15,901 bases of DNA from Parachlamydiales bacterium (GTDB lineage Bacteria > Chlamydiota > Chlamydiia > Chlamydiales > JAJFMK01), in the NCBI GenBank assembly GCA_963765145.1, contig CAVXVG010000032.1:1-15901 (forward strand), given 5' to 3'. The notes beneath the pieces are model-generated. The model ran no database searches. It worked only from the letters and a program-made list of their open reading frames with translations, and was not told the origin of the DNA. This document shows, one piece after another, positions 603 to 15,901 of the stretch. The translations under genes were made by a program, and so were the position numbers. Each line of letters begins with the position of its first letter. Positions within the stretch are counted from its first letter, which is position 1.

Positions 603-1172
603 TTATTTTACGATGGTTTCTATATCTTTTAGGTTCTTCACTTTTGTGTTTGTTATATTGTATTCTCTTAGCGCGTTGGTTACATTTTCATTAACAAGTA
701 TTCTAACAGTGCCTTCTGGAGAAAAAAAATCAGAGCCGTCCCAACTTTCTAAATTAAAGAAAATTCCCTTATAAAATTTGACTAATGGTCCAGTTGGAAT
801 TAATCTTTTTTCGATAATTTCAGATTTTTCACAAATGATGGGCCCACAATGTCCAATGACAGAAAATCCATGATAACCAACTATCTCTAGGCCTTTTTTA
901 TCATAAAGTTTGATGGGATATGTTTTCCAACCAGTCAATTTCTTTTCATTCAAAACTGACTTTAGCTTTTCAGAAATCAGGAAAAGATTCGCATATCCAG
1001 TATCCAAAATGTCTAACAAATTCATTCCAGAGTTTTGTTTAAATATAACAGGCATTTCAATGCCATTATAATTGCCTGTTATGAGTTCCAGATTGCCATC
1101 ATACGGTATATGAATTGGGCTTGAATGGAAGGTTGAACTAACAAGTTTGCTGCTAAAATCAAAAAAATCCAT
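603..1172 (-). CDS. Putative cognate immunity protein (Imm11/DUF1629-like)
   Basis: 189-aa AT-rich ORF directly behind the toxin tip. The AGGAG RBS overlaps the toxin stop (TAGGAG); start is ATG 1172 or TTG 1175. The pattern D-x5-ANLFLISEKLKSVL...LTGWKTYPIKLYDKKG...YHGF...DGSDFF...ILVNE resembles Imm11/DUF1629-type proteins (recognised by eye). Confidence 0.75.
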   Translation of the reverse strand: MDFFDFSSKLVSSTFHSSPIHIPYDGNLELITGNYNGIEMPVIFKQNSGMNLLDILDTGYANLFLISEKLKSVLNEKKLTGWKTYPIKLYDKKGLEIVGYHGFSVIGHCGPIICEKSEIIEKRLIPTGPLVKFYKGIFFNLESWDGSDFFSPEGTVRILVNENVTNALREYNITNTKVKNLKDIETIVK

Positions 1173-1187
1173 CAACGATTTGGGCTC

Positions 1188-4100
1188 CTAGAAATTTACT
1201 TGATTACCATAATTAGTCATAACTTTGTTTCCGTATTCCAAAATTTGCTCCTTGGTTGCCCTAGGATGATCAGCGAAAAACGCTCTCCAAATGTCATTAT
1301 ATTCCTTTGCACTTGCTCGGTGAGGAGCTCTTTCCCACCATGTAAGAAATTTTGGATCATCTATATTTATGCCTTTTTTTAGAAATTCATCCCGCATTGC
1401 TTGAGGAAAAACATGATGCGCTTCAATCTTGCTCGGCGGGTCCATTCCCGTCAATCGCTTGAGGTTTTCTCTGTAATGTCTTTCATTAAAAGGCTTAAAT
1501 GCTTTGTTAGCATTACTAGCAAAATTTTGTTCAACTTGAGGGAGGAGGTTTGATTTGGAAAAGCCAAGTGAGATCACTGTTTCTACACCACCCGCTTGTA
1601 GACTAGAAAGACCTTGCGATTGGAGGTATTGGCTAGTTAGAGAGTCTCTATATTCACCAGTGGCAATTTGTTGTGCACCTGCTACGAAGTTGTCAGCCCC
1701 GCTTAGAACTAAGTAACCACCAGCAATGCCAGCAACAGCAAAACCAACACCACCTGTTGCTATTCCTGCGGTAATGACCCCTGCTCCAATCATAGCTTGG
1801 GTATATCCGCCATGCATACGCAAGCCACCCTGAAGATAAGGATTTCCTAAGATATCGAGCGCAGTTGAACCGAGAGCTTCATATGCATGTGAAGAAAAGC
1901 GACCGGATGGATCCCTGAAGTTGATGGGGTCGCCATTGGCGTAGGAATAGAGATCGAGGGGGAAGGGGTAACCGATCGGGTCGGGTGAAAGGAACCGACC
2001 TACTTTTGGATCGTAGTGACGGGCGCCTAGATGGATGAGGCCGGTTGGGTCTTGGCGATTTCCTTGCCAAGCGTGGGATTTGGCAAAGGAAAGAAGATTT
2101 TGTTCTAAGAAGGGCGGTGGGCCTGTAGGGCCATAAGATGAAGGGAGCTCCTCGATCCAGTGAATGTTGTCTTGTGAAGCTAGGGCTTTTAGGTTTCCAA
2201 GGGCATCATTGAAAAGGGTGATGCCGTTTCCTTGGCTGTCTACGATGGCATCGCAAGAAGTCGGGCCATAAAGTTTCCAGAAAGTCTTGTCGTTGAGTTT
2301 GACACCAATCTCTTGAAACTCATATTCCGGGTCGAAAAGAGAGGTTATTTTTTCGGTTGTGTTCCAAAGTAACCCTTTTTTGGTAAAGGTCGTTTGGAGT
2401 CGACGGCCAAGGGGGTCGTAGGAAGCTTTCCAGATATAGTTTGGAGAAGAGATCGCACTGAGGTTTCCCCACGGGTCCCATTCGAGTTGTTCTTTGTTAT
2501 CTTTTGTTGTTCTTGAAAGAGTTTGTCCAACAGCATCGTAGATTGTGCTGCAAGTTTTACCTTGTAAAGTCTCGTTGAGTATCTTCCCAAAAGGATCTAA
2601 ACCAGAAGATAGGATGACATGCTCTCGGGCAAACGTCCGAACTCCCCTACCCTGTTTACCGAAATCAAATTCGTACCGGTCTTGGCCAGCAGATTTTAGG
2701 TAACCTCTCGTGGTGTAAGAGAAGGTTTTTTCTGAGTTGTTAGATTTGTATGAAGCAAGTCTACCTGATGGGGTCCAGCTGAGGGATTCTTGAAAGGTGT
2801 CGATTCCAAGAACAGTTTTTCTTGTTTCTGGAAGACCAGAAGGAGTGTAAGAGAAATCTGTCGAATAAAATGGAGTCCTCTTCTTGTCTAGTGCACCATT
2901 TAGGGCATATTCGTAAGAGAGGTCAAAACCTGAAGAGGAAAGCCTTTTGATTTGACCTGTTTCATAGTGAAACTCTCTATTATGATCCCCTATTTGGAGA
3001 GATCTTGAAGATGGGGTCCAAGTTTGGTTGGTCTGTTGTAAACGTTCTCCGTTGAGGTAGATGGCCTCTGAGACGAGATTTCCTGATTGGTTATAATCCC
3101 TTTTAACGACGGCATGATCTGCGCCTGATTGTTCGGCAGAAGTGAGAAAACCCCTTTGATCATAAGTGAATGTGCGGCTCATCTGATCGACCTGATCTGC
3201 AATTAATCTTAGGGCAGAGTCATAGGTGTAGTGGTGGACCCGACCAAGAGGATCCTTGGCTTGTTTAAGGAGGCCGTTTTCATATGTATATTCGTATTGT
3301 TGGGCTAATTGTCCGTTGGCCTGCAGGGCTTCACTTGTTTTCCTACCCATTAGATCGTAGGTCGCTTGCCAAGTGATGTTGCCAGGCAGATGGTAGGCAA
3401 CTAAATTGGAGCCTTCATCGTACGTGAACCTGATAGGTGTGCCATCCGGTAAGATTTGCTCTTTGGTGCGACCTAACTTATCAAACTCTCGGTGGGTTGT
3501 TCTTCCTTCTCCATCAATAGAGGCAATGCAGCGGCCAGCGTGGTCGTATTGATGGGTCGTAAAGAGATCTCCTTGCTGGATGAGAAGGGGTTGGCCTTCT
3601 GTATTTGTCCAGGTTGTTATGATGAGATCTCCTGATATCTCCTCCACTTTGCTCTGATCCGGATAGTAGTGAATCGTTTTGTGGAAGAGCAGATTTCCTT
3701 CAGCATTGATTGTTTTGGTTTCAACCAGTTGTCCTGCTACAAACCGCTGGATAGTTGTTTCCCCATTTGGAAGAGTAGATGAGACAGTATCTCCTTCATA
3801 GCTCCAGGTTTTTGTGTGTCCTTCAGGATCTGTTTCAGAAACAATTCTATTAAGAACGTCATAACTCTTTTCCCAAATGTATCCTCCGGCATCAGTGAAA
3901 GAGATGAGGTTACCTCGAACGTCGTAGATGCTTACTTCGGTGAAACCAGACTCTTTTTGAACCCTAGTAACAGTGTTTTTTGCATCGTCGTAAGTTGTTT
4001 CCCAAGTGATCCCATTCTTAGATTGCATGGTGGGTCTACCAAAATAGTCGTAAGCAAAGGCACTTTCTGTTCCATCAGGATAGATTTCTTTTTTGAGAAG

Positions 4101-6761
4101 GCCATTGGTTGTATAAAGACGACTCGTTTTTCCTCCATTAGGTGTAGTAATGGTTGCAACCATTCCACCAGCTTCGTAAGAAAACTCTGTGGTTAGATCA
4201 TCGGTTGTCTCTTTAGAAACTCTGCCAAGTTCATCGTACTCTCTGTAAGTCGAGACCCCCAGTGGATTGACCTCTTCGATCAGATGCCCACGTGTATCGT
4301 AATTGTAGAGCCTGTAAGCAAAGCCAGCAGGCACGAGGAAGTTCCCCTCCGTTGTTGTTAGTGATTGCATGGATGCTTTAAGCTGCCTATTGGCATTGTA
4401 ATCAAGCATGAGGGTGTTTTGGGGGTCTGGGCCTTGTTGCCAGGCCAGATGATTGTCGTGAGTGTAACCGGCAGTGACCGTCGATAGAACATTTTCTTCT
4501 AAATCCAAAATGGAACGTTGCAATCGATTGCCCATGTTGTCAAAGATGCTGCGCTCAATTCCACTTTGTGTTCTTTTTTCTACACATTGTCCCTGATCAT
4601 TATAACTGTATTTTGTGACTACCTGACGGTTATCCATACCGGTCTCTTGCGCGATCTCAATAGGGAAACCTCGTTTATCATAGGTCCAATGTGTGACCGC
4701 GCCTGAACGATTTTCTTCTTGGAGCAACCCGTTAGTGTACTTAAATTCAACAAATGCAAGGGATGTTTGATCGATAAAAGTCTCAATTCTTTTAGGGAGA
4801 AAAGGAAATTGATCGTCGTAGAGAGTTGTCGTGATCTTGTTGAGGGCCTTTTCTTCGACTGGGAGATTAAACTCGTTATAAGAAAAGTGCTTAGTGATCT
4901 TCTGATCACCAAGTCCGGTCAGATCTTCACCTATGAGGGAGATTTCAATGGGATTGCCATTGCTGTCGTAGCTATATTCAGTGACTAATCCCCGTTTATC
5001 TTGAGTGGATCTTAGACTGCGGCCATATCCCCCTATTTGCTCGAAGGGAACAACACATCCTTTTTCAGGGTCGAAGTAAGAATTTGCATTGATGAACCAA
5101 GACTGGAGGGTGATGTAGCCTTGGGGATCGGTAATTCTGTAGATCTGTTTCCCGAAAAGTTTGTACTCGGTAGAAGCTCCGCTTGCATCTGTCGCTAGGG
5201 TAGAACCATCTCCGTACATGAAGGTGGCGCTAGCTACCATTTCTTGTTGAGGACCTGTAGGGGACTGTTGTTCGATGACTCTTCCCTTTTCGTCGTAAGT
5301 GTTTTTTAATACTTTGCCGTTTGGACGAATTTCTTGGATGATTTGATGGGAAGTGTCGTAGACATATTCGATCTCTGCGCCATTTGGTAAAATAACCTTA
5401 CACAAGTCGCCAAGAGAGTTGTAAAGGTAATATATTCGACGACTATCTTTTGAATAGGCCTCTGTTAGTTTCCCTTCAAAATCATAGCAAAACCCAATGT
5501 AACTTCCGTTTGAGCTCTCTATCTCTTTGAGCTGTTCGCCAACGTAGGAAAAGTTAAGGGTATGACCTGCCGGGTTTATCCACTCTTTGAGGAGATGGTT
5601 TTCGAATCGCCGTTTAGATCCGTCAGATCCAAAAAGAAGATGGCTTCCTTGATCCTCTACAATGTAGGCATGGAATGGATTAGCCACACTTCCGATTCCC
5701 TTTTGATTAGAGTTGTAAAGTTCTGGGTTATCTTCAGGAAAGACTCTCCATCTTGCACTCGACTCATCTCGTCTGTAGACAATCACAGATCCATCTTCTT
5801 CCGCTGCGTAAAGTTTGTCTTCTTCTTCATGAAGGTAAGGATTCAGACTCAATTTCCAACGCGGACCTAGGAAAGTGAATGTAGAATTTTGATTACTGTA
5901 ATTACGTCTGATTTCCAGCGGGAACGGTCCGGGAATAGTGAGGTCAACCTCGTCAATGTAAAAAGCGCCAGTCACGATATCAACAGGGTCGGCAACAGTG
6001 TTTAATGAAGTTTTAAAAAGTTGCCTGACGTCGGCAGTCCATTTGGTGACCCACATGGTTGGGGTCATTTTGGGTTGCAGATTTTGGACTTGATGTTCAA
6101 TCGATATGGAAGAGGGTTTATTCAACCAGTCTGCAATCACCTCATGATTGACTTTTGTAGAATAGAGGTTCCACTTGACCCGATCGAAGGCATTGAGGTC
6201 TTTTAGCAAAAGACCTGATCCATACCCTCCATTTGTATCGCCCATGGAGTCTGAAATCATAGCTAGTGTCTCATGGGAGTTAAAAATGAGTGTCCCAAAT
6301 CCTGTATAGGAGGGTGAATGGGTGGTTGGGTCGATTGCGTTAGAAATAGGAACAGGTGTCATGAAAGCAATAGAATGATCGTCAGCTGCTAACGAGTGCC
6401 CTGCTGTTATCCATTGCTGTCTCCCCTTAGTAAAAATCCTTTCGAAGCTGAAGTCGGGTAGATGAGGAAAATTTAAAAACTTTGAAACAAAAGGGTCTTT
6501 CTCAGCAACAGATTGCGTTCTTTCTGTTAAAGCTAAAAATCCTGAGCCTTCCCTCCCCTTCTCCTGATGGCCTTTGTGGGCAATTTTTAAAAGTTTGATC
6601 GTAGAGATGGCATTTTGATCTTTAAAGACATCTTGAATCACTTGATGTTCATTTGAGGAATAGTCTGCACAAGTTAAGATGAGATAATCTGCCAAACGGA
6701 GATGATAGCTCTCATCAACTGTTAAGAACAAATCAATATTACAGTGGATGTAAAAAGCCAT
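1188..6761 (-). CDS. rhs: RHS/YD-repeat polymorphic toxin: DUF6531 + RHS repeats + RHS core + C-terminal HH-motif nuclease (DUF2380/AHH-like); C-terminal part of a larger frameshifted gene
   Basis: DUF6531-type motif VADPVDIVTGAFYIDEVDLTIPGPFPLEIRRNYS; many YDxxGR repeats; core GARHYDPKVGRFLSPDPIG...YSYANGDPINFRDPSGR (DPSG at 1913-1902); tip EAHHVFPQ...GINIDDP...HR...YNDIWRAFF...ATKEQI. The frame is open upstream to 6824. Confidence 0.93.
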   Translation of the reverse strand: MAFYIHCNIDLFLTVDESYHLRLADYLILTCADYSSNEHQVIQDVFKDQNAISTIKLLKIAHKGHQEKGREGSGFLALTERTQSVAEKDPFVSKFLNFPHLPDFSFERIFTKGRQQWITAGHSLAADDHSIAFMTPVPISNAIDPTTHSPSYTGFGTLIFNSHETLAMISDSMGDTNGGYGSGLLLKDLNAFDRVKWNLYSTKVNHEVIADWLNKPSSISIEHQVQNLQPKMTPTMWVTKWTADVRQLFKTSLNTVADPVDIVTGAFYIDEVDLTIPGPFPLEIRRNYSNQNSTFTFLGPRWKLSLNPYLHEEEDKLYAAEEDGSVIVYRRDESSARWRVFPEDNPELYNSNQKGIGSVANPFHAYIVEDQGSHLLFGSDGSKRRFENHLLKEWINPAGHTLNFSYVGEQLKEIESSNGSYIGFCYDFEGKLTEAYSKDSRRIYYLYNSLGDLCKVILPNGAEIEYVYDTSHQIIQEIRPNGKVLKNTYDEKGRVIEQQSPTGPQQEMVASATFMYGDGSTLATDASGASTEYKLFGKQIYRITDPQGYITLQSWFINANSYFDPEKGCVVPFEQIGGYGRSLRSTQDKRGLVTEYSYDSNGNPIEISLIGEDLTGLGDQKITKHFSYNEFNLPVEEKALNKITTTLYDDQFPFLPKRIETFIDQTSLAFVEFKYTNGLLQEENRSGAVTHWTYDKRGFPIEIAQETGMDNRQVVTKYSYNDQGQCVEKRTQSGIERSIFDNMGNRLQRSILDLEENVLSTVTAGYTHDNHLAWQQGPDPQNTLMLDYNANRQLKASMQSLTTTEGNFLVPAGFAYRLYNYDTRGHLIEEVNPLGVSTYREYDELGRVSKETTDDLTTEFSYEAGGMVATITTPNGGKTSRLYTTNGLLKKEIYPDGTESAFAYDYFGRPTMQSKNGITWETTYDDAKNTVTRVQKESGFTEVSIYDVRGNLISFTDAGGYIWEKSYDVLNRIVSETDPEGHTKTWSYEGDTVSSTLPNGETTIQRFVAGQLVETKTINAEGNLLFHKTIHYYPDQSKVEEISGDLIITTWTNTEGQPLLIQQGDLFTTHQYDHAGRCIASIDGEGRTTHREFDKLGRTKEQILPDGTPIRFTYDEGSNLVAYHLPGNITWQATYDLMGRKTSEALQANGQLAQQYEYTYENGLLKQAKDPLGRVHHYTYDSALRLIADQVDQMSRTFTYDQRGFLTSAEQSGADHAVVKRDYNQSGNLVSEAIYLNGERLQQTNQTWTPSSRSLQIGDHNREFHYETGQIKRLSSSGFDLSYEYALNGALDKKRTPFYSTDFSYTPSGLPETRKTVLGIDTFQESLSWTPSGRLASYKSNNSEKTFSYTTRGYLKSAGQDRYEFDFGKQGRGVRTFAREHVILSSGLDPFGKILNETLQGKTCSTIYDAVGQTLSRTTKDNKEQLEWDPWGNLSAISSPNYIWKASYDPLGRRLQTTFTKKGLLWNTTEKITSLFDPEYEFQEIGVKLNDKTFWKLYGPTSCDAIVDSQGNGITLFNDALGNLKALASQDNIHWIEELPSSYGPTGPPPFLEQNLLSFAKSHAWQGNRQDPTGLIHLGARHYDPKVGRFLSPDPIGYPFPLDLYSYANGDPINFRDPSGRFSSHAYEALGSTALDILGNPYLQGGLRMHGGYTQAMIGAGVITAGIATGGVGFAVAGIAGGYLVLSGADNFVAGAQQIATGEYRDSLTSQYLQSQGLSSLQAGGVETVISLGFSKSNLLPQVEQNFASNANKAFKPFNERHYRENLKRLTGMDPPSKIEAHHVFPQAMRDEFLKKGINIDDPKFLTWWERAPHRASAKEYNDIWRAFFADHPRATKEQILEYGNKVMTNYGNQVNF
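1673..2215. repeat. Direct repeat, copy 2 (inside the RHS gene; partner 4..546)
   Basis: Covers the last RHS repeat region, the core and about 75 codons past DPSG. Confidence 0.95.
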
Positions 6762-8427
6762 GTCGACTTGAGGAAATTTTATTTCCAGCTCTGTATCCAG
6801 CTGTTTTAATCGAGTTCCCTGAAGTCAATTTTGCTAGGCCAACACTAAAGTAGTAAGGATTGGCAAGCTTATGAAGGATAGCAAGTTGCGTTTGAGCACG
6901 GTTGCATTTTTCAAAGTAAAGGGCTCCGGTAAAAGCGAGCAGACTATGCAGATTTTCTTCAGCTTCGTTCTTATTTAGGCAAGGCCGCGCAAATAGAGAG
7001 GTGGTTTTTGGAGAAGTATTCCCAAAACTAAAGCAAAGAGCGGCTTTTGTCCCTTTTGCAACAGAGAAGTTTCTTGTCCATTTTACCTCTTTTTGTTGGT
7101 AGGACAACTGAATGTCTAACGTGAGATCGTTTTGGTCTAGGAGGTAATCAAAGTCGGTTCGTTTTTGAGCAGTGGATGAGGTGATTTTTTCATTATTCCA
7201 TCCATCCATTAGATAAAATGACATCAATTGATGATGGTCATCGCCTTTAAAATCGAGAGCAAAAAAACGACCATTCAGAAAGGGTAGAGAAACCTGTTTT
7301 TTTGATCTTTTCCCAGGGTTTTCTCTTGAAGCTATTTCGATATCTAAAGTGGCATATAGTTGCGGAGGCAGACTTTCAAAAACGTTGTAATTTTCAAATT
7401 CGGGTCTTGGGAATTCTTCCCAAGAGGTGAATTGTTGTTTAATTAGAGTCCGGTGGCAGCCAACATCTTGAATAGACAGTCCTTGTGTCTGTAGTTGTTC
7501 ATTTGCAAAACGACTAAAAAGAACACCGACAGTATCGTCTTTATCAAGTCCTATATGTTTGGAAATCTCTTCGTCAGCCGTGAGGTATCGTTGAATCCAC
7601 TTATTAGCACTTGAATAAGCATCTGGCATCAAATGATAGAGATCATGCCCTTCCGCCACTTGGACATTTTTCATCCAAGGAAATAGAGAGATCCATTTAT
7701 TTTGATCTAACTCGAGCAAAACAAAAGGGTAGTTAAGAACAACCTCTTTTTCCGCTGGCAATTTTGTAAAAAACAACCTTTCAATGTAATCCACAGGCAA
7801 GGTACAGCTTGTTTGGGCGTACGTAGCTTTAAAACCTGCCTCTTCTAGAAGATAGATGAGCAAAGCGCATTGTTCCCACGCGCTTCCTTCTCCTTCCAAA
7901 AAGGTTCCCAGTGCGCTCCTGTGCAAGAGTGGAGCCTCAAAGACTTTATCTTGTGTTCTGAATATAAAAGGATCGGCAAGGTCGATCTCATTTTGCACAT
8001 ACTGCGCGATTGCTAGAGGGTCCTTTTTTAGCTCTACTACGAGCTGATTTAAAAGAGGGTGAGGGATCAATTCATCCCCTTTCTCTAACCGAAGAGATCC
8101 TTGAGGAGGTGCACATGTCGGTGGCGATTGACTGAAGGGTCTGGGTTTGAAAGTAGGTAACCCTGGTTTTTTGAGAACCTCAAGTTGCCAAGGAGGAGGA
8201 GCATTTAAACCAAAGGCATATATTGGTTGATTTTCAAGGCAGATGGAAAACTGATAAGGCGAATCTCCTTTGATTGCTAAGACGAACTCGAATTCAGAGA
8301 GAATTTTTACCCGTAGGTCAAGCCCATAGCTCTTACTTAGCTCTGTTTTTGGTATATAGACATTCCCATCTTCAATAAGATAAGTATCCCATGCTGGGCT
8401 TCCTTTTTGGGAAGAGAGATAATTTCT
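6739..8427 (-). CDS. Transglutaminase-like domain segment of the giant RHS gene (catalytic residues apparently lost)
   Basis: The listed ORF 6739..8070 is actually open back to 8427 (GSPAWDTYLIEDGNVYIPKTELSKSYGLDLRVKIL...). Motif AIAQYVQNEI...RSALGTFLEGEGSAWEQCALLIYLLEEAGFKATYA matches the transglutaminase-like G-x-C-x-D/E-x-A-x-LL-x-x-LLR-x-x-G-I-P-A-R-Y pattern with Ala at the usual Cys position. Confidence 0.7.
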   Translation of the reverse strand, partial: RNYLSSQKGSPAWDTYLIEDGNVYIPKTELSKSYGLDLRVKILSEFEFVLAIKGDSPYQFSICLENQPIYAFGLNAPPPWQLEVLKKPGLPTFKPRPFSQSPPTCAPPQGSLRLEKGDELIPHPLLNQLVVELKKDPLAIAQYVQNEIDLADPFIFRTQDKVFEAPLLHRSALGTFLEGEGSAWEQCALLIYLLEEAGFKATYAQTSCTLPVDYIERLFFTKLPAEKEVVLNYPFVLLELDQNKWISLFPWMKNVQVAEGHDLYHLMPDAYSSANKWIQRYLTADEEISKHIGLDKDDTVGVLFSRFANEQLQTQGLSIQDVGCHRTLIKQQFTSWEEFPRPEFENYNVFESLPPQLYATLDIEIASRENPGKRSKKQVSLPFLNGRFFALDFKGDDHHQLMSFYLMDGWNNEKITSSTAQKRTDFDYLLDQNDLTLDIQLSYQQKEVKWTRNFSVAKGTKAALCFSFGNTSPKTTSLFARPCLNKNEAEENLHSLLAFTGALYFEKCNRAQTQLAILHKLANPYYFSVGLAKLTSGNSIKTAGYRAGNKISSSRHGFLHPL

Positions 8428-9434
8428 TCATGGATAGCATTTCCATCCTCGTAAACTTTGACTTTGAAATCTGTTGGAGGAGGGACTCCTACCAACACTC
8501 TGTAGAATTGTCCCAAATAGTGAGTATATCTGTCTTCAAGAAGGTATTGTCCATCCAGAGGGATAGCAAATGGACCTGGCTTGAACAGCCTATCTATCAA
8601 GAAAGTTAACTGGTTGGATTTATCAGGAAGTGAGGGAAGATGTAGATAAAAGTGTTCTTTCCGCGTCTGTTCTTTCTTGTAGAAATCCTCGGGAAAAGGT
8701 CTTGTTTCTCCTTGAGTATTTTGCTGTTGAGAAAGTGTAAGTTGTTTTTCTAAGGCGAAGAGCTCATTTTCATCTGCTGCGTCTACATCTACAAGTTCTT
8801 GTAGAATCGCTACCATTTGCTTTTGAGCACGCTCTCCACTTTCTTCTTTCTTCAAGAAGGCTAGCTGCTCCTTTAGGGCTAGAATTTGTGACTGTTTCCT
8901 TACAGGCCATTCCTCAGCTTGTTTTGTGCATTTCGCTGCTAAGTCTCTACAATCGGTAGCTTGCTTTGTAAAAAACCGCTTGTTTTCTAGTGCATCAGGA
9001 GTTGAATAGGGGTTAAATAAGGAGATAGCATTTTTATATCCCTCCTCTGCCTCTATGTATAGCTTTGCCGCTTCGTTAAAATAATGGATTGATGTTTCAA
9101 TTTCTTTGAGATGATTAGGGAAAGAATATTGGGAGACATAGGAGGCTGCCTGGTTCTTCTTTTCTTCACAAGCAAACATGATCAATTTTGTCTTTTCAAA
9201 GGCTTCAAAAAAGCCGATGTGATGTTCAAGGTTACGAATATCAGCTTGGTAGTTCTCTATTGTCTTGATGATCCCAGATCGAAATTCAGCTAAAGACCGC
9301 CGGTAGGCTTCGTTTCCAACAATCTTGGTTTTTTCTAAAACTATTGCATGGCAAGCAATAGCTTTTTGCAATCGATCGCCCGCGTCTTTTAAAAGCTCGA
9401 TCAGACTGAAGTCCACTTTTGGTCTTAGCAATAT
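8337..9434 (-). CDS. Alpha-helical (TPR/coiled-coil-like) segment of the giant RHS gene
   Basis: Long open frame rich in Ala/Glu/Lys helices (HYFNEAAKLYIEAEEGYKNAISLF; QILALKEQLAFLKKEE). It has no good start or RBS and overlaps the neighbouring frames at both ends. Confidence 0.65.
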   Translation of the reverse strand: MLLRPKVDFSLIELLKDAGDRLQKAIACHAIVLEKTKIVGNEAYRRSLAEFRSGIIKTIENYQADIRNLEHHIGFFEAFEKTKLIMFACEEKKNQAASYVSQYSFPNHLKEIETSIHYFNEAAKLYIEAEEGYKNAISLFNPYSTPDALENKRFFTKQATDCRDLAAKCTKQAEEWPVRKQSQILALKEQLAFLKKEESGERAQKQMVAILQELVDVDAADENELFALEKQLTLSQQQNTQGETRPFPEDFYKKEQTRKEHFYLHLPSLPDKSNQLTFLIDRLFKPGPFAIPLDGQYLLEDRYTHYLGQFYRVLVGVPPPTDFKVKVYEDGNAIHEEIISLPKKEAQHGILILLKMGMSIYQKQS

Positions 9435-9603
9435 TTATCAACCTCTCGGCTTCAGCCACATGCCCATTTGCAGTTGCAGTCTGAGCCGCTTGCAACTGAG
9501 AAAGTGTGTTATCCCATTCTCTTTTTTTATCCGGTCCTTTTCCTTCTATTGAGAGCGGGGAAAAGGTGAAGAGAGCGATCAGAAAAAATGAGATAAAGTT
9601 CAC
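9286..9603 (-). CDS. N-terminal segment with putative Sec signal peptide
   Basis: GTG start at 9603 with an in-frame TAA two codons upstream. MNFISFFLIALFTFSPLSIEG|KGPDKK is a hydrophobic stretch followed by a charged mature region; no lipobox Cys and no positive n-region residue. Confidence 0.65.
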   Translation of the reverse strand: MNFISFFLIALFTFSPLSIEGKGPDKKREWDNTLSQLQAAQTATANGHVAEAERLINIAKTKSGLQSDRAFKRRGRSIAKSYCLPCNSFRKNQDCWKRSLPAVFS

Positions 9604-9945: not shown

Positions 9946-10392
9946 TCATTTAACAAAAATTTCTCTGATTTGCACAATGGGTTCATGAGCCTCTTCTGAA
10001 CTGAGGTCTCCGGCTATAAATATTTTTGTAACGATCGTATCGATGTCAGGGGCCGTTTTTTTCATCATAACGATCGCCGCGTAAAGGGGATCTTCTTTAA
10101 AGGCGTTAAACATCTTCAATCCATAAGACTCTTTTAGAGAGTTAAGATCTAGGCTTGTATCTCCCTCTTTTTTTTCTAGGAGTTTCTTCCTTTCTCTCTC
10201 AAATTCATTCTTGATTTGAGACGCCGATTTGCTTTTTAAAAACAGAGCGATTGATCCACCCACCATGCGGTGATTAGTAATGATCTGATCTTGCACCTCT
10301 TTACTTTCATTTGAATACATTTTACGTAGAGATGCCTCCTCGTAATTGCTAAATCCTTCACCACTCATTTTCATGACTCGCTCTAAGGTCAT
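9946..10392 (-). CDS. Hypothetical 148-aa helical protein
   Basis: Intact ORF. AGGAGG lies just upstream of ATG 10392 (MTLERVMKMSGEG...), favouring this start over 10452. No family recognised. Confidence 0.75.
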   Translation of the reverse strand: MTLERVMKMSGEGFSNYEEASLRKMYSNESKEVQDQIITNHRMVGGSIALFLKSKSASQIKNEFERERKKLLEKKEGDTSLDLNSLKESYGLKMFNAFKEDPLYAAIVMMKKTAPDIDTIVTKIFIAGDLSSEEAHEPIVQIREIFVK

Positions 10393-10631
10393 ATATCCTC
10401 CTGGAAAAAGACTAGGTTTATAAGGGATCTCTCTTCGAGTCATCCATAACAAAGTAAATGTTTATTTTCATAGGCGCTCGTGGGATACAGGAGTATTAAC
10501 AGCACGTTGATGGACTTCCAGCAAATTGGTAATCAAAGGGTTATCAAGACACCTACATGCTTTATTCTTGTAAAGAATCTTCTTGAAAATCCCCCGTTAT
10601 TAATGTTAGGCATATAAAGAAAGGGTGGCTT

Positions 10632-11340
10632 ATGGGAGAAGATTTAACTTTTGAAGAGGACTTTGACCCTGCGTTATCGACTGCCGCAAATAGTGAAATA
10701 GCCAGAATCAAAAAGGACATTAAAACGCTTAAACAGGAGTTAAAATCCAAGTCCACTACCGTTCCTATAAGCAGATTAGAGGAGCTAAAAAAAGGGCTTG
10801 GGCAGCTTACAAAGTTAGGGGTGACTCCAAGCCAAATGGCAGATTTGGAGTCACTATTGCCCCAGCCAAGCGCATTTAGCCAAACCGAAGAGAAAGCTCC
10901 TGCTGCTATAGAAGAGTCTGCAAACTTGGGAGCAACTCAGCCAGACGTATCTAAGGAAGATATTGAAGAGCTTTATGTGCGTGCAAGCGCTCTATACAAC
11001 GGAGGGAAGTACAAAGAGGCTTTCTTTGCTTTTTCAAACCTTAATTCTTTTGCCCCCAATGATCCACGTTTTGTTATGGGATTAGGCGGATTGCCAGCTG
11101 GGAGAAAATCGATACAATGAAGCTGCTATTACTTTTGCATTTGCAAGTGCCATCGATATTAAAAATCCGATTCCAACCCTCTATTTGGCAGAATGTCAGT
11201 TGAAATTGGGTCAAATTGAGCTGGCCTTACAATCTTTAGAAGAAGTCATCCTACGCAGTTTAAATAAGCCCGAATATGCCGGATTAGGAGATAGGGCTAG
11301 ACTGACACTCCAAAAATTAAAAAACCACCCTAAGGGATAA
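10632..11340 (+). CDS. lcrH: SycD/LcrH-family (class II) T3SS translocator chaperone with ~105-aa N-terminal extension; one +1 frameshift at 11091-11092 (235 aa when repaired)
   Basis: DIEELYVRASALYNGGKYKEAFFAFSNLNSFAPNDPRFVMGLGG continues in the +1 frame as CQLGENRYNEAAITFAFASAIDIKNPIPTLYLAECQLKLGQIELALQSLEEVI...HPKG* (TAA 11338-11340). Removing one T restores the GLGxC-x6-Y-x2-A spacing of SycD TPR2. Confidence 0.88.
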
Positions 11341-11543
11341 AGAAAGTTCCTTAAAACTTTACGTCTTAATGAATTATTAAAAAACAGTTAAACAAACTTA
11401 ACAATAATGTTCTTTAATTGTATTGGAGAGAAGTAGGATGAGGGATGCTTATGAGCACTAATTCCAGTAATGAAGAGAGAAGAGAGGTTAACAGCCCCCC
11501 CTCAGCATTACAAATCCAAGCTAACCTTAATGTAGAAAAAGCA

Positions 11544-11552
11544 AGAATGACG
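11544..11552. repeat. 9-bp target-site duplication, left copy (AGAATGACG)
   Basis: An identical 9-mer lies at 13100-13108; both copies abut the TIRs. Confidence 0.95.
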
Positions 11553-13099
11553 CAGCCGCTCCCGCTGAGAATATCATCTTAAAATTTTAAGCGACAAAAG
11601 AGTGAGCCAAAAACTTGAGGGGTAGGCGGGCTGTCAATCGAACAATAATTTCAAAAATAAGTGTGAGGCGCAGGCTAAAAAATCAGGTTAAGGATACAGA
11701 TTCACTTGCTAGGATGTATTTAGAGGTCTTTCTTTACTAAGCATTGAGTAGAAATTTTCCCAGTCAATAAGCATCACGTAACGAAACAGCGTTTGCATTG
11801 TTATCCACAGCTCCCGATAGGTCCCTGCGAATTTTCTACACCGTTGGTATAATGAGCAGCAGACTTCCTGGACCTGATCAACCAGAAAGGCCAGCATCAT
11901 TAGGAGGCATAAGACGGTAGAAAGATATTTTTTCCCATGCCCATAGTTGTGTTCAAAGTTGTATCCCAAATTTTTTAGCGTGTTAAATGTTTCGTTTTCA
12001 ATTTTCCATCTTGCTCTCCCGCCCTTAGCGATTTTATGTACGTTTGTTGTTGATATTAAGATGTTTGTAACCCAAGAGAAGTTCAATTCCTTACCCTTAG
12101 GATCGGTCTGCCTATATTCGAGGATGTTGACCTTGACGTCTTGATTGGATTTATTCAGTGCTGCCCCATTAAGGAACCTAAATTGATGGTAATATCCATC
12201 GCTCGTTCTCATTTCATGGTAGAGAGTCTCTTTGCTTGTCTCTAGCTGCTCAAATAGGAACTGATGATCGCCGGGTTTTGCTCCTAGAATGTATTTTAGA
12301 CCAAATTCCTCGATCACTCTTATGTGGGGTGCTGTTGAACTTAGTCCATCTTCTACGAGAATGGCCTTCAGGTGAGGATGCTCTCTCCGGAAGTTTGCTA
12401 AAAAACGTTTACAGGCGTTCCTTTCACAGTCATTCTTCGAACTACCATCCTGATTTAGAATGACTTCTGGGCATAAGGGGATCACATTTTTCTTATCCGG
12501 ATGAACAATACAAGCGCCAAACATCTGGTGATAATAGGTTTTCGTTCCATTTTGGAGCTCTTTTACACAGCACTGCGGACAACACACGCTGCTAGACGAA
12601 AATTGTCCTGTCCCATCACCAGATATAAGGACATGTCCGTCCAAGTATTCAAATTCTTCAAGCCCTTTTCCTCTCTGAAAAGCAGCAAACACCTTTTTAA
12701 AAGCAGGTCGGATATCATTTGGATCGACGTGATCCAACCGCTCTCGTAGATAGGTATCGGAAGGAGGGTTTTTAACATGGTAGAGATCGTGAAGATTCTT
12801 GGCGACCACATCGTCTAAGCGTTTTTTATCGTAATTAAGCAGAGATGGGCACTTCAGGCTAAAAACGGCTAGACCTGACATGAGGTGATCTGTGATCGAT
12901 ATCGCCACATTTTTGGTAAATTCGCGAGGGTCAGGTACTTTTAGAAATTGTTGATGAATGATGGAGAGCAGGCCTGGTGCGCTTAGGTCTTTTCTGAAGG
13001 ATGACATGAGATTTTGTCTTTGAGTTGGGAAACACGTTCTCAAAGTTTACGAAATCAAAGTTTAATCTACACGGTAAAACCGCTCAGCGGGAACTGCTG
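11553..13099 (-). mobile_element. Complete 1547-bp insertion sequence, DDE type, probably ISNCY family (ISMae2-like group)
   Basis: TIRs CAGCCGCTCCCGCTGAG (11553-11569) and the reverse complement of 13083-13099, CAGCAGTTCCCGCTGAG (15/17 match); perfect 9-bp TSD; one intact transposase. Family assigned from memory of the N-terminal motif DHLMSGLAVFSLKCPSLL...PSDTYLRERLD, the CAG ends and the 9-bp TSD. Confidence 0.92.
11709..13007 (-). CDS. tnp: DDE transposase (432 aa from ATG 13007; 444 aa from TTG 13043)
   Basis: Catalytic-type motifs LISGDGTG, ILVEDGLS and GRARWKIENETFNTLK; CCPQC motif; uninterrupted frame between the TIRs. Confidence 0.93.
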   Translation of the reverse strand: MSSFRKDLSAPGLLSIIHQQFLKVPDPREFTKNVAISITDHLMSGLAVFSLKCPSLLNYDKKRLDDVVAKNLHDLYHVKNPPSDTYLRERLDHVDPNDIRPAFKKVFAAFQRGKGLEEFEYLDGHVLISGDGTGQFSSSSVCCPQCCVKELQNGTKTYYHQMFGACIVHPDKKNVIPLCPEVILNQDGSSKNDCERNACKRFLANFRREHPHLKAILVEDGLSSTAPHIRVIEEFGLKYILGAKPGDHQFLFEQLETSKETLYHEMRTSDGYYHQFRFLNGAALNKSNQDVKVNILEYRQTDPKGKELNFSWVTNILISTTNVHKIAKGGRARWKIENETFNTLKNLGYNFEHNYGHGKKYLSTVLCLLMMLAFLVDQVQEVCCSLYQRCRKFAGTYRELWITMQTLFRYVMLIDWENFYSMLSKERPLNTS

Positions 13100-13108
13100 A
13101 GAATGACG
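13100..13108. repeat. 9-bp target-site duplication, right copy (AGAATGACG)
   Basis: Identical to 11544-11552. Confidence 0.95.
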
Positions 13109-13439
13109 AGAGATCTGGACCGTTTAAGTGCTTACAACGACATTCTGATTGGGCTACAAGAACAAATCACAATAGATCAAATAGTAGGATTGGAAGCCCA
13201 GGTTGTTAGGAATAAGCAGTATGTTCAAGCTCTACACGACATTGGTGACCAAATCAATGCAATCACCAAATTGGGTCATCCTGCAGAACTAAACATCTTG
13301 AGAAAACAACTACTTAGAGTTGATAGCAGCTTGAAAGAGCTGTTTTTCAGAACCGATTCGATTTTATTATCCCTTATGGGTTCGTAATGAGTCTGGGTAA
13401 AATAAAGAGGTTTCTAATCTTTGGAATTTAGGGAAATGT

Positions 13440-14706
13440 ATGAGCGATCAAAGTGTAGGTAGTACTGGTAACACCGGCAATGTCGGAGGAACTTCAGGCG
13501 CTTCTAGCGGACCTCTCCCGAGTCTAGAGCAGATCCAAGTTAACATCGATGCTGCAAAAGCAAAGATGAAAAAAAGATTTAAACAACCTAAACACAAACA
13601 TATCCACAACGAAAGGTCTTCAGGGTCAAACAACCAGAAACATCCAGTATGCGGAGAATTTGAAAAACCTCAATAACCAGCTTAAAGATCTCATAGCTGG
13701 TGCTCCTACAGCTGAGACAAACAGCTTAGTAGCTCAAATAAACGATTTGAAAACCACACTTAACCAGCTCATGTATGGTACCGAAAGTGTCCTCTTTTCT
13801 GACCTCCAAGTTTTAGGGTTTTCGACCAGTACACCATCCAGCAAAGTTACATCTACAGGGCTACCTCCTATTCTGTCCGTCCCTCTTTCGAATGGAACTA
13901 CCCAGAAACTTTCAGCTCAAGGTGTAGCTGCCCTTAAGAACTCAGTTGCAGCTTGGCTCGGCCCAAACCTAATAACTGCAATTTTCAAAATAATGGAAGA
14001 GGTCGTTAAGCAAAAAATTCAAAACATTGATACCTATCGTCAATTTCAATGGAACTCCATCGCAGGCACAGAAGCAGCAGCCCTATCTGCAGCGCAATCT
14101 CAACTCTTAGAAGGGCAATTAGAGGCCGCAAGCCAAAGAGCCCAAGCAGCAGGCCAGCTAGCCGCAGGAATCATCGGAATGAGCCTTGGTTTTCTTTCCA
14201 TTGGATTCACCTTTGGTAAGGTGGGCTCAATAGAGAAGGAGTATGGTACAAAGCCGATTGGAGGAGAGGTAGATGACGTCGCAAATCCAGGCACAAAAAG
14301 GCCACTGCTAGGAAGGCAAGGTGAGATTGATTATGAATACAAAAAACCCGGCAGCACTATGACTGAAGCGCAGCATGCTGAAAGAAGCCAACAACTGACA
14401 ATGCAAAAACAGAATGCAATTCAAAACTCATTGCAATCTGACCCATGGTTAAGAATTTTTACTGTTGGAGAACAGACATTCGCACAAATAGCCCAAGGCA
14501 TGGGAACTATCATCGGCGCTGGCTATACATCAGAAGCTGCCTATGCTAAGGCAGTTGCCATGCTCTGGCAGCAGATGATTCAATGTGAACAGAACATCAC
14601 GCAAGACATGAGCCAAGCGATTCAGGGAGCTGTCCAAGATATCCAAGGTATACTGCAAGCTTTTGGAAGTATTTCTTCTTCTGTTACAAATCAAAGCGGT
14701 AGATAA
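13440..14706 (+). CDS. Putative T3SS minor hydrophobic translocator (SctB; CopD/YopD/IpaC-like), 421 aa after removing one A from the A7 run at 13569-13575
   Basis: Ser/Gly/Thr-rich N-terminus; PxLxxP class II chaperone-binding-type motif (PILSVP, 13867-13884); Ala/Gln helix leading into one hydrophobic segment (AAGQLAAGIIGMSLGFLSIGFTFG); C-terminal amphipathic/coiled region (MSQAIQGAVQDIQGILQAFGSIS); lies downstream of a SycD/LcrH chaperone. ORFs 13440..13676 and 13660..14706 join via ATG AAA AAA GAT TTA. Confidence 0.7.
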
Positions 14707-14829
14707 CAGGCAGATACAAAGCATTCTTTACTTTAAATTAATATTTGCTGCAAAAATCTATACTTTGGTAGAGTTATTTTTACTACTCATCTATTGAGGC
14801 TTTGATAAACTCTTTACAAAGGTGATCGA

Positions 14830-15602
14830 ATGGCTACATAGCAGTTTCTAGGCAACCCCTTCAGCCAACTACTGCTTACCAACTAGTCCCTATAACCAGC
14901 AAGCACAATTCGTTAAAACAAAGCGATATGATATTATGCTTGTTGATTCAATCAATGAAGCCCACATGCAGAAGCTTCGTGGACATTGATGATCAGAGAA
15001 GAACAATGGCTATTAAAATGAGACAGCTAAGGCAGATTAAGTAGGGTGCCAGCCTACAGAACCGAAGAAGAAGCACCTTTTCGATAAAGGCAGAAATGCT
15101 TTACCCAAACGACAAAGACTTAAAAGGTAATATGTCATGAGTAGCCTCTTCAAATACTACTCAGACTCTTAGGGCAGTAAAAGCGATAAGAGGACCAGAG
15201 TTATGTCACATAGGCGAAGGGATGACAATCCTACCCATTTCATGAAAATTGAAAATTCAGCTAAAGGACACATAGTCAATCAAACTATGAGTTATTCTGG
15301 TGAATTAAGAAAGATTACTGAAGAACAGTGGGCAAGAATTTGAGAGATAAAGCATCTTATGGAATTGGTCAGATCTATGGTGAAAGATATGCCATGGTAA
15401 AAAGAGCTGCAGATCAAGGTCTACTAGTTGGAGAGGAAGCTTTGTCTGCTGATTACCTACAAAAGGAGAAGGCAAACAACTGGGCATATTAAAGGTGCGG
15501 AAGAAGCTAGAGCTGGTTATGTTCGTGCTTTAGCAGCTACATCTTGCTTATCAACAAGCAAATGCTGCTTTTAGGGCACCACCACCACTTCTACGATTGT
15601 AG
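14830..15602 (+). pseudogene. Heavily frameshifted gene-like unit, tandem paralogue 1 (function unknown)
   Basis: AAGGTG RBS then ATG 14830. Protein-like blocks occur in alternating frames (QQAQFVKTKRYDIMLVDSINEAHMQKLRG; DDNPTHFMKIENSAKGHIVNQTMSYSGELRKITEEQWAR; LRDKASYGIGQIYGERYAMVKRAADQGLLVGEEALSADYLQK; HLAYQQANAAFRAPPPLLRL* ending at TAG 15600-15602). The start is homologous to the unit at 15728. Confidence 0.55.
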
Positions 15603-15727
15603 CCAACCCCTATTGGACTCCAAGTAACGATGCTACGTAACGATCCGTGCACATGGTGATTATTACTAAAATGATTTAGTGTGAGTGTGGTTTCAATAAA
15701 AAAGAAAACCTTAACCAAGGTAAAGCT

Positions 15728-15901
15728 ATGGCAGCAGTAGCAACTATCCCCACAACCTCTTAGCCAATAAATTCTTCCCAACTAGTATCCATAAACCAAG
15801 TAGTACCATTGATTCAAACCAAGCGGTTTGACCTTGTGATTATTGATTTAATCAACGAAGCCCACATGCCAAAGCTCCGTGGTAACTGATGATCTGAGAA
15901 G
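15728..15901 (+). pseudogene. Start of tandem paralogue 2, truncated by the window edge
   Basis: AAGGT RBS then ATG 15728: MAAVATIP..*PINSSQLVSINQVVPLIQTKRFDLVIIDLINEAHMPKLRGN**. DNA 15844-15901 closely matches 14944-15001, with several third-position differences. Confidence 0.55.

Follow-up and report, generated by a model that had tools for sequence, protein, structure and literature searches.

A free-standing and a fused form of one helical module in a chlamydial chaperone-translocator locus

What is a small gene doing between a secretion chaperone and a translocator, when it resembles the beginning of that translocator? The question is raised by a 15,901-nucleotide stretch of a Parachlamydiales bacterium (GenBank assembly GCA_963765145.1, contig CAVXVG010000032.1), the whole of which we call the window. 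Three genes on its forward strand, at 10632-14706, encode in turn a chaperone with tetratricopeptide repeats (TPR), a small protein of 126 codons and a long protein that we assign to the SctB family of translocators; the small gene is interrupted by a 1,547-bp insertion sequence (IS) at 11553-13099. Our preferred reading, to which we give a probability of about 0.38, is that the small protein is a stand-alone copy of the translocator's N-terminal module, kept by selection, which would act in the cytoplasm on the SctB-chaperone complex, as an accessory partner or as a competitor. Below, G000 is the genome of the window (which is its contig C32) and G001 a relative; L-numbers denote compared loci and P-numbers database proteins. 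The features that the argument needs are these:

10632-11340, forward: SycD/LcrH-like (class II) translocator chaperone with TPR matches; frameshift near 11090
10683-10865 (approximate bounds), forward: N-terminal extension of the chaperone, read from profile-profile comparison (96%) as a shortened form of the module
11451-11552, forward: 5' piece of the small gene, a charged leader and the start of helix 1; matches the start of P0011 and of the G001 ortholog
11544-11552, no strand: left copy of the 9-bp target-site duplication
11553-13099, reverse: insertion sequence with a DDE transposase open reading frame (ORF) at 11709-13043 (reverse), flanked by the 9-bp target duplication
13100-13108, no strand: right copy of the 9-bp target-site duplication, identical to the left
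13100-13387, forward: 3' piece of the small gene, the rest of helix 1 with a 12-residue insert near 13133-13168, then helices 2 and 3
13440-14706, forward: long gene, assigned to the SctB (CopD/YopD/IpaC-like) minor-translocator family; frameshift in an A-run near 13570-13580
13440-13514, forward: G/S/T/N-rich uncharged leader of the long gene (90% small polar and 5% charged in residues 2-21)
13515-13800, forward: fused copy of the three-helix module in the SctB-family gene
13867-13884, forward: PxLxxP chaperone-anchor motif, absent from the small protein
14158-14214, forward: hydrophobic segment of the SctB-family protein (hydropathy peak 1.5-1.9 in orthologs)
L025:13493-13873, reverse: intact G001 small gene, ortholog of that in the window

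The small-gene product matches residues ~20-122 of the long-gene product. Its 3' piece alone aligns with the long gene at 31% identity over 67 residues (E 9e-10), and the window pair, with an X at each break, reaches a Smith-Waterman score of 114, where 1000 plain shuffles peak at 52 and 1000 heptad-preserving ones at 51. For the intact G001 pair the score is 153, rising to 172 when the small protein of G001 is set against a second paralog, values that 0 of 1000 shuffles reach. An initial annotation of this DNA had taken the small protein for a copy of the translocator's N-terminal domain, and scores of 114-172 against shuffle maxima of about 50 bear this out; coiled-coil composition, which the heptad-preserving controls retain, does not explain the homology. 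When five long-gene N-termini are made into a profile that excludes the small gene, the 3' piece of the latter comes directly after the long genes themselves among 12,320 six-frame ORFs of G000 (iE 4.7e-10; best unrelated ORF 0.74). The free and fused forms are 30-38% identical paralogs, and residual similarity between the small gene and the long genes persists in the DNA. Homology stops where the small gene stops, ~20 residues ahead of PxLxxP, which is the boundary proposed earlier. The 12-residue insert was also seen then, after the word GLQEQIT; the insert exists, but its position is ambiguous, since two GL-x-x-Q words stand 12 residues apart and it may be placed on either side of the first. 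This spacing suggests a short internal duplication.

The insertion sequence deserves separate treatment from the gene that it splits. The identical 9-bp target duplication, the inverted ends (16 of 25 bases match) and the DDE transposase corroborate the earlier view that an IS divides the small gene. The transposase matches PF01609 (E 5e-5) and, below its cut-off, the IS4-type model NF033591; G000 holds one full copy of the element and an 87% relative on contig C21. Intact counterparts exist: G001 carries the three-gene set in the same order at L025 (235, 128 and 395 residues), and the public-assembly protein P0011 represents an allele without interruption, whose start and end match the two small-gene pieces of the window. 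The insertion is therefore recent or polymorphic. A promoter and terminator scan of L025 found sites no more frequent than in shuffles.

A second source of disruption is probably technical. The initial annotation described two broken genes, one split by the IS and one by a slip in a run of seven A. The A-run frameshift is indeed present in the long gene, but the chaperone is frameshifted too, and these slips are probably consensus errors of the assembly, to judge from sequence comparison: the contig end differs from a 95%-identical G001 stretch by 24 non-triplet indels in 1.45 kb, indels at 15341-15541 are absent from short contigs of two other runs that are near-identical outside the gaps, and the indel at 11090 is absent from a 92%-identical contig. 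None of the compared contigs covers the break in the long gene or the IS junctions. G001 may hold assembly errors as well; at its contig C1, 900523-902527, the sctV/FHIPEP gene is divided between two ORFs, and frameshifts occur close to the 5' end of two long sctB copies.

Structure prediction points to the same unit in both contexts. The model of the G001 small protein is an antiparallel three-helix bundle (helices 18-48, 55-87 and 92-125) with a predicted local distance difference test score (pLDDT) of 86.8 and a predicted template modelling score (pTM) of 0.77, and the small protein has a conserved heptad core. The G001 long protein is modelled with confidence only at residues 24-121, again as a three-helix domain; free and fused modules share the same three, the 12-residue insert lengthening helix 1. 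The earlier proposal of a helical module used both alone and fused to an SctB thus finds support in homology and in matching predicted folds. Fold searches return CorA (Z 13.9, the best), spectrin repeats (13.5) and Habc (11), besides BAG and designed bundles, at about 2-3 Å root-mean-square deviation for the best and 4-17% identity; Foldseek gives no E under 0.001. The module thus shares a predicted antiparallel three-helix fold with spectrin repeats, the syntaxin Habc domain and BAG (Z 11-13.5), but at that level of identity. These matches appear to be generic three-helix bundles, indicating a common fold and not family membership; none stands out, and the fold search yielded no specific described family. 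The small protein likewise matches no Pfam or NCBIfam family and gives no usable Atlas match, which indicates neither absence nor novelty. A PDB sequence search with the long family retrieved designed coiled coils only (best E 0.011).

Host-exposed parts of proteins often evolve faster. The fused module has a ratio of non-synonymous to synonymous differences (pN/pS) of 0.73 against 0.10 for the SctB core, and it is conceivable that the module works outside the bacterium, perhaps as a mimic of spectrin or of syntaxin Habc, with the free copy a secreted effector or decoy. Spectrin repeats, BAG and Habc are among the top fold matches (Z 11-13.9), effector-like genes lie downstream in the same arrays, and SNARE mimicry is described for chlamydial IncA in a passage of PMC9993115. 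We nonetheless regard a host-facing module as unlikely, given that the fold matches are generic, that the short forms lack the G/S/T-rich leader of the long proteins, and that a cytoplasmic chaperone bears the module too.

The nearest described arrangement is scc2-CT577-copB-copD of Chlamydia (CT576-CT579), to which the initial annotation had compared the locus. The likeness is one of layout: a class II TPR chaperone comes first, a gene of ~120 codons follows directly, and a translocator lies behind, the long gene aligning with the CopD profile over the stretch between PxLxxP and the C-terminus. The analogy fails in that the window operon has no copB or sctE and the small gene sits between chaperone and sctB, not between scc2 and copB; nor does its product match CT577. 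Identity with CT577 was rejected on profile comparison (hhalign 0.45-0.65% against five positional orthologs of 118-132 residues from Chlamydia genomes) as well as on position. The function of CT577 is undescribed, and results on its secretion conflict, in the portions of PMC2817459, PMC3931295 and PMC1403754 consulted. That the small gene is nevertheless its ortholog, as similar size (119 residues, per a passage of PMC1403754) and place after a class II chaperone (PMC2817459, in part) might suggest, or that it merely converged on a coiled coil, is highly improbable and already largely refuted, by the hhalign values for the former and, for convergence, by heptad-preserving shuffles that never reach the score and by residual DNA similarity to the long genes. 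The N-termini of CopD, CopB, Scc2 and Scc3 were also rejected as relatives, no module match being found and Scc2/Scc3 reaching 1.4% or less, as was the CopB2/CopD2 pair: across five Chlamydia genomes, no ORF at the second translocator locus exceeded 0.4%. Chlamydia CopD, CopB and the second pair thus lack the module, unlike the long gene of the window. The module arrangement is a variant of the chlamydial chaperone-translocator locus, of narrow range, and no description of such a module was found in a literature search that left most subscription papers and all supplements outside it.

The assignment of the long gene itself requires several lines of evidence, its close family having no direct Pfam or NCBIfam match. 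A profile search of 1.84 billion representative proteins with this family returns 24 proteins, and a 19-row alignment of it matches 96 of 401 genomes of the order via the C-terminal two thirds. Around such distant homologs, 4 of 16 upstream ORFs scanned match SseC/SctE, and 2 of 44 ORFs, both long-gene homologs, match SseD below its cut-off. Compared with a profile made from five Chlamydia proteins at the CopD position, the family reaches 71% (E 3.7e-5, 267 columns, PxLxxP to C-terminus), a match that needs the 19-row alignment, the 7-row one giving only 0.9%. The motif (P/VxLxxP) precedes the hydrophobic region in 4/4 long and 0/2 short proteins scanned; the uncharged leader, predicted disordered in the ortholog, is likely a secretion signal; the C-terminus is helical in the model at low confidence; and the long genes lie behind a class II TPR chaperone at the loci compared. 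Atlas neighbours from SctB2, IpaC_SipC and YopD clusters (0.91-0.93) are a weak lead in the same direction. Since profile, motif, hydrophobic segment and position of homologs agree, we place the long gene in the SctB family on sequence grounds, as the initial annotation did, with one family feature missing: no SseC match, hence no adjacent sctE, was found in G000 or G001, nor in their sctB loci.

The order of the window includes a family with Chlamydia MOMP (28 of 400 genomes), which places the window in the Chlamydiales, within a small family separate from that one; in this small family, sctE and sctB seem unlinked. Chaperone-led operons with a putative SctE gene of 927-943 residues occur at L062, L063 and L064 (G002, G001 and G003, respectively); the 927-931-residue gene has a weak SseC match in G002, the G001 copy being assigned by position and size only. 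No sctB follows it in G001 or G002, and in G003 the next gene runs off the contig. The literature disagrees on whether chlamydial translocators use PxLxxP at all: a passage of PMC4068993 has the motif as required for binding of CopD to LcrH_1, whereas PMC9993115, in part, and section 6 of PMC13466201 say that chlamydial translocators lack it.

A third form appears on the chaperone. Its intact G001 ortholog has 235 residues, is 93% identical to that of the window and matches TIGR02552 at E 8e-27 (93.6 bits against a curated cut-off of 104.8; paralogs at L028 and L029 reach 123.8 and 119.1). Compared with the module by hhalign, the N-terminal extension of these chaperones gives a probability of 96% and a score of 52, whereas 100 + 100 column shuffles do not exceed 18-19. 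Tested singly, 5/5 sctB-locus chaperones give 9-94% and 13 other chaperones 0.63% or less; the window type carries the weakest signal (9-16%), the L028 paralog giving 86% and the L029 paralog 94%. The module-like extensions span 10632-10865 in the window, 8164-8463 at L028 and 6287-6571 at L029. By these profile comparisons, a shortened form of the client's own module stands at the start of the SycD-type chaperones encoded at these loci. No description of a chaperone extension homologous to the N-terminal domain of its client was found in the literature searched. The initial annotation, right about the module of the small gene, had missed this one, as it had the repeated short forms and the recombining array described below.

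Chaperone extensions as such are familiar. In Scc3-CopN (PDB 4NRH) a helical extension likewise precedes the TPR domain and is used for docking or dimerisation, and the abstract and section 6 of PMC4222845 assign dimerisation and gatekeeper binding to such extensions; unlike the extension in the window, those of Scc2 and Scc3 show no sequence match to it, and it is homologous to the client. The module might be a docking tag for the secretion machine, either the gatekeeper SctW/CopN or the ATPase, borne by chaperone and translocator alike, the free copy titrating the site and shifting the timing of translocator export. On the chaperone it occupies the same N-terminal place as the gatekeeper-binding region of Scc3 (PMC4222845, section 6), and in window-type chaperones the TIGR02552 match starts only at model position 12-14. 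Residues 1-157 of CopD pull down CdsN (PMC4068993, in part), and an SctV/FHIPEP gene is present in 4/4 genomes of the family. We judge this rather unlikely, because the module has no similarity to the N-termini of Scc2 and Scc3 and because the chaperones at L028 and L029, whose TIGR02552 matches start at position 2-3, appear to retain a conventional pre-TPR region too.

How did the free copy arise, and is it maintained? The spacer between chaperone and small gene in the window is ~96% identical to the L026 spacer that leads directly into a long gene, so the small gene holds the 5' place of the long gene, as a partial tandem duplication would leave it. The copy is old, since synonymous distance between small and long genes is saturated (1.5-2.0) while that between the window and G001 (dS) is 0.2; C-terminal cassettes elsewhere in the arrays, by contrast, are 83-96% identical in DNA to the end of the L025 long gene. 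In a tree of 13 modules the small protein sits on a long branch inside the clade of window-type long genes (96/96). An old partial tandem duplication is thus the likely origin. Moderate purifying selection on the small gene is also likely from the substitution pattern: pN/pS is 0.38 (14 synonymous and 18 non-synonymous changes, the latter mostly conservative; p 0.007 at the measured transition/transversion ratio, ts/tv, of 1.09), compared with 0.21 for the chaperone, and all four blastn indels inside the gene keep the frame (4/4).

The surroundings bear on the same question. Tandem arrays lie behind sctB at L025 7200-12500, L026 7900-16700 and L027 10300-13500 in G001, and at 14490-15901 in the window. 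They contain two families of effector-like genes of ~290-330 residues with a common C-terminal tail, orphan SctB C-terminal cassettes of 65-75 residues, a 486-residue hybrid of an effector-like N-terminus and an SctB core, as well as sctB copies whose middle regions have been exchanged; by its sequence the array looks like a recombining, diversity-generating locus. The small gene could on this background be a functionless, or nearly functionless, by-product of recombination in slow decay, as the cassettes, the hybrid and the frameshifted long genes of G001, the IS insertion in the window and a weak codon-position test would all allow. It would be a by-product that has kept its frame open while synonymous sites saturated, with a pN/pS of 0.38 and in-frame indels only, and that has retained a conserved hydrophobic core and a confident predicted fold; we therefore hold decay to be quite unlikely.

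We return to the preferred reading, that the small protein is a retained accessory of the SctB-chaperone complex. Because the module is common to client, chaperone and free protein, it is most simply an interaction surface within their complex. The fused bundle would serve SctB as a self-chaperoning or docking domain, its partner being either the related extension of the chaperone (SycD-type) or helices of SctB itself; in trans, the free copy would provide the same surface or compete for it, and so would tune the amount of this SctB paralog held ready for secretion. The short forms, without anchor and membrane part, would be expected to stay out of both the TPR groove and the pore. The small protein would stay in the bacterial cytoplasm, since the leaders of the short forms (five proteins, 25-45% charged) are charged like those of five chaperones (25-40%), unlike the G/S/T-rich leaders of nine long proteins (5-15%). 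As we infer them, the duplication route and the cytoplasmic location are likely, and the function proposed for the small protein is the most probable of those considered.

The closest functional analogy may lie with tip proteins, for which section 7 of PMC13466201 describes a helical module either fused, as in the self-chaperoning IpaD and BipD, or free, as in CesA and LcrG. One type of helical module occurs there in both states, as it would here. Those modules serve the hydrophilic tip protein SctA, not SctB, and in that section their likeness is structural, not one of sequence, whereas the free and fused forms here are 30-38% identical.

Several observations weigh against this reading. The pN/pS of the small gene, which compares two alleles, is not significant at ts/tv 10 (p 0.15), and codon-position counts of 8/7/12 are weak (p 0.15). 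Leader composition is a crude guide, the window's own leader being intermediate (65% small polar residues). The full-length model of the long protein does not confidently pack the module against the remainder (pTM 0.35), and that of the small protein is a closed bundle with its own core and no evident groove. CesA, LcrG and IpaD-type domains are not among the best 50 fold matches listed, where numerous generic bundles have similar ranks. Other sctB fragments also come out of the arrays, so that such pieces are frequent products. Finally, the small gene is dispensable, being present at 1/4 chaperone-led sctB loci of G001 and IS-disrupted in the window, and of two further short forms, P0022 and P0019, neither of known gene context, P0019 lies on a contig of 2 kb and is possibly truncated.

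A bolder version is improbable, namely a control circuit built from one module that was fused on SctB, grafted on the chaperone and freed several times. If true, like-with-like pairing of bundles would assign each chaperone to its SctB paralog, and free copies would switch which variant of the recombining sctB array is exported. Even short of this, the locus offers a soluble, predicted well-folded SctB N-terminal domain that has been cut out naturally, with a related form on the chaperone. SctB N-termini are described as poorly understood, and as mostly missing from solved chaperone complexes, in section 6 of PMC13466201, and a natural free module makes it easy to approach the question of how translocators are stored and put in sequence ahead of export. 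The locus also illustrates, in clear form, the probable birth of a small gene through partial duplication where secretion genes recombine.

The reach of these observations is limited to one genus of uncultured chlamydiae. The module profile matches 4/400 Chlamydiales genomes, and clear matches are confined to two, G000 and G001; borderline matches in G158 and G132 (E 5-7e-4), to a long coiled-coil membrane protein and a large protein (hhalign 3%), were treated as chance. The G132 protein (L092 1-2691, reverse) has a helix-hairpin stretch that is weakly module-like (E 7e-4, hhalign 3%). Among more distant long proteins, whose N-termini are helical by eye, the narrow profile scores only P0015 (iE 5e-5) and P0018 (0.07). 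G001 differs from Chlamydia in having about five sctB copies that bear the module and are followed by effector-like genes.

Of the five proteins that a short-protein search returns, the two already mentioned, P0022 and P0019, both end without a complete PxLxxP. P0022 has 126 residues, lacks the insert and is 47-52% identical to long genes and 29% to the small protein; its contig has the same length as that of the full-length paralog P0035. P0019 has 145 residues and is 71% identical to the L028 long gene. One or both of these would, by sequence, have arisen independently. Scans of metagenome contigs with P0022 and P0002 gave no match.

Other genes occupy comparable places. At L028 9004-9534 a different small gene, of 176 residues, lies between chaperone and sctB and bears a weak likeness to helix 1 of the module (score 59, 1/1000 shuffles, for one paralog; hhalign 2%); the first 18 residues of its product are 72% like P0019. 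At L029 6682-9809 (G000, contig C15) three coiled-coil genes of 263, 500 and 268 residues stand between a divergent chaperone and the second sctB of G000, with no module match in the two compared pairwise. Elsewhere in the window, a 300-bp repeat occurs at 4-303 and 1673-1972, and a large RHS-repeat gene lies in pieces at 603-9603 (reverse); it is intact in G001 at L027 (2,789 residues) with a different C-terminal tip, the tip in the window being predicted to resemble a toxin domain of nuclease type, with a likely immunity gene behind it (603-1175). Divergent from the chaperone, at 9946-10452 (reverse), runs a gene of ~170-200 residues without a Pfam family, which is repeated at three G001 sctB loci and is under purifying selection (pN/pS 0.25).

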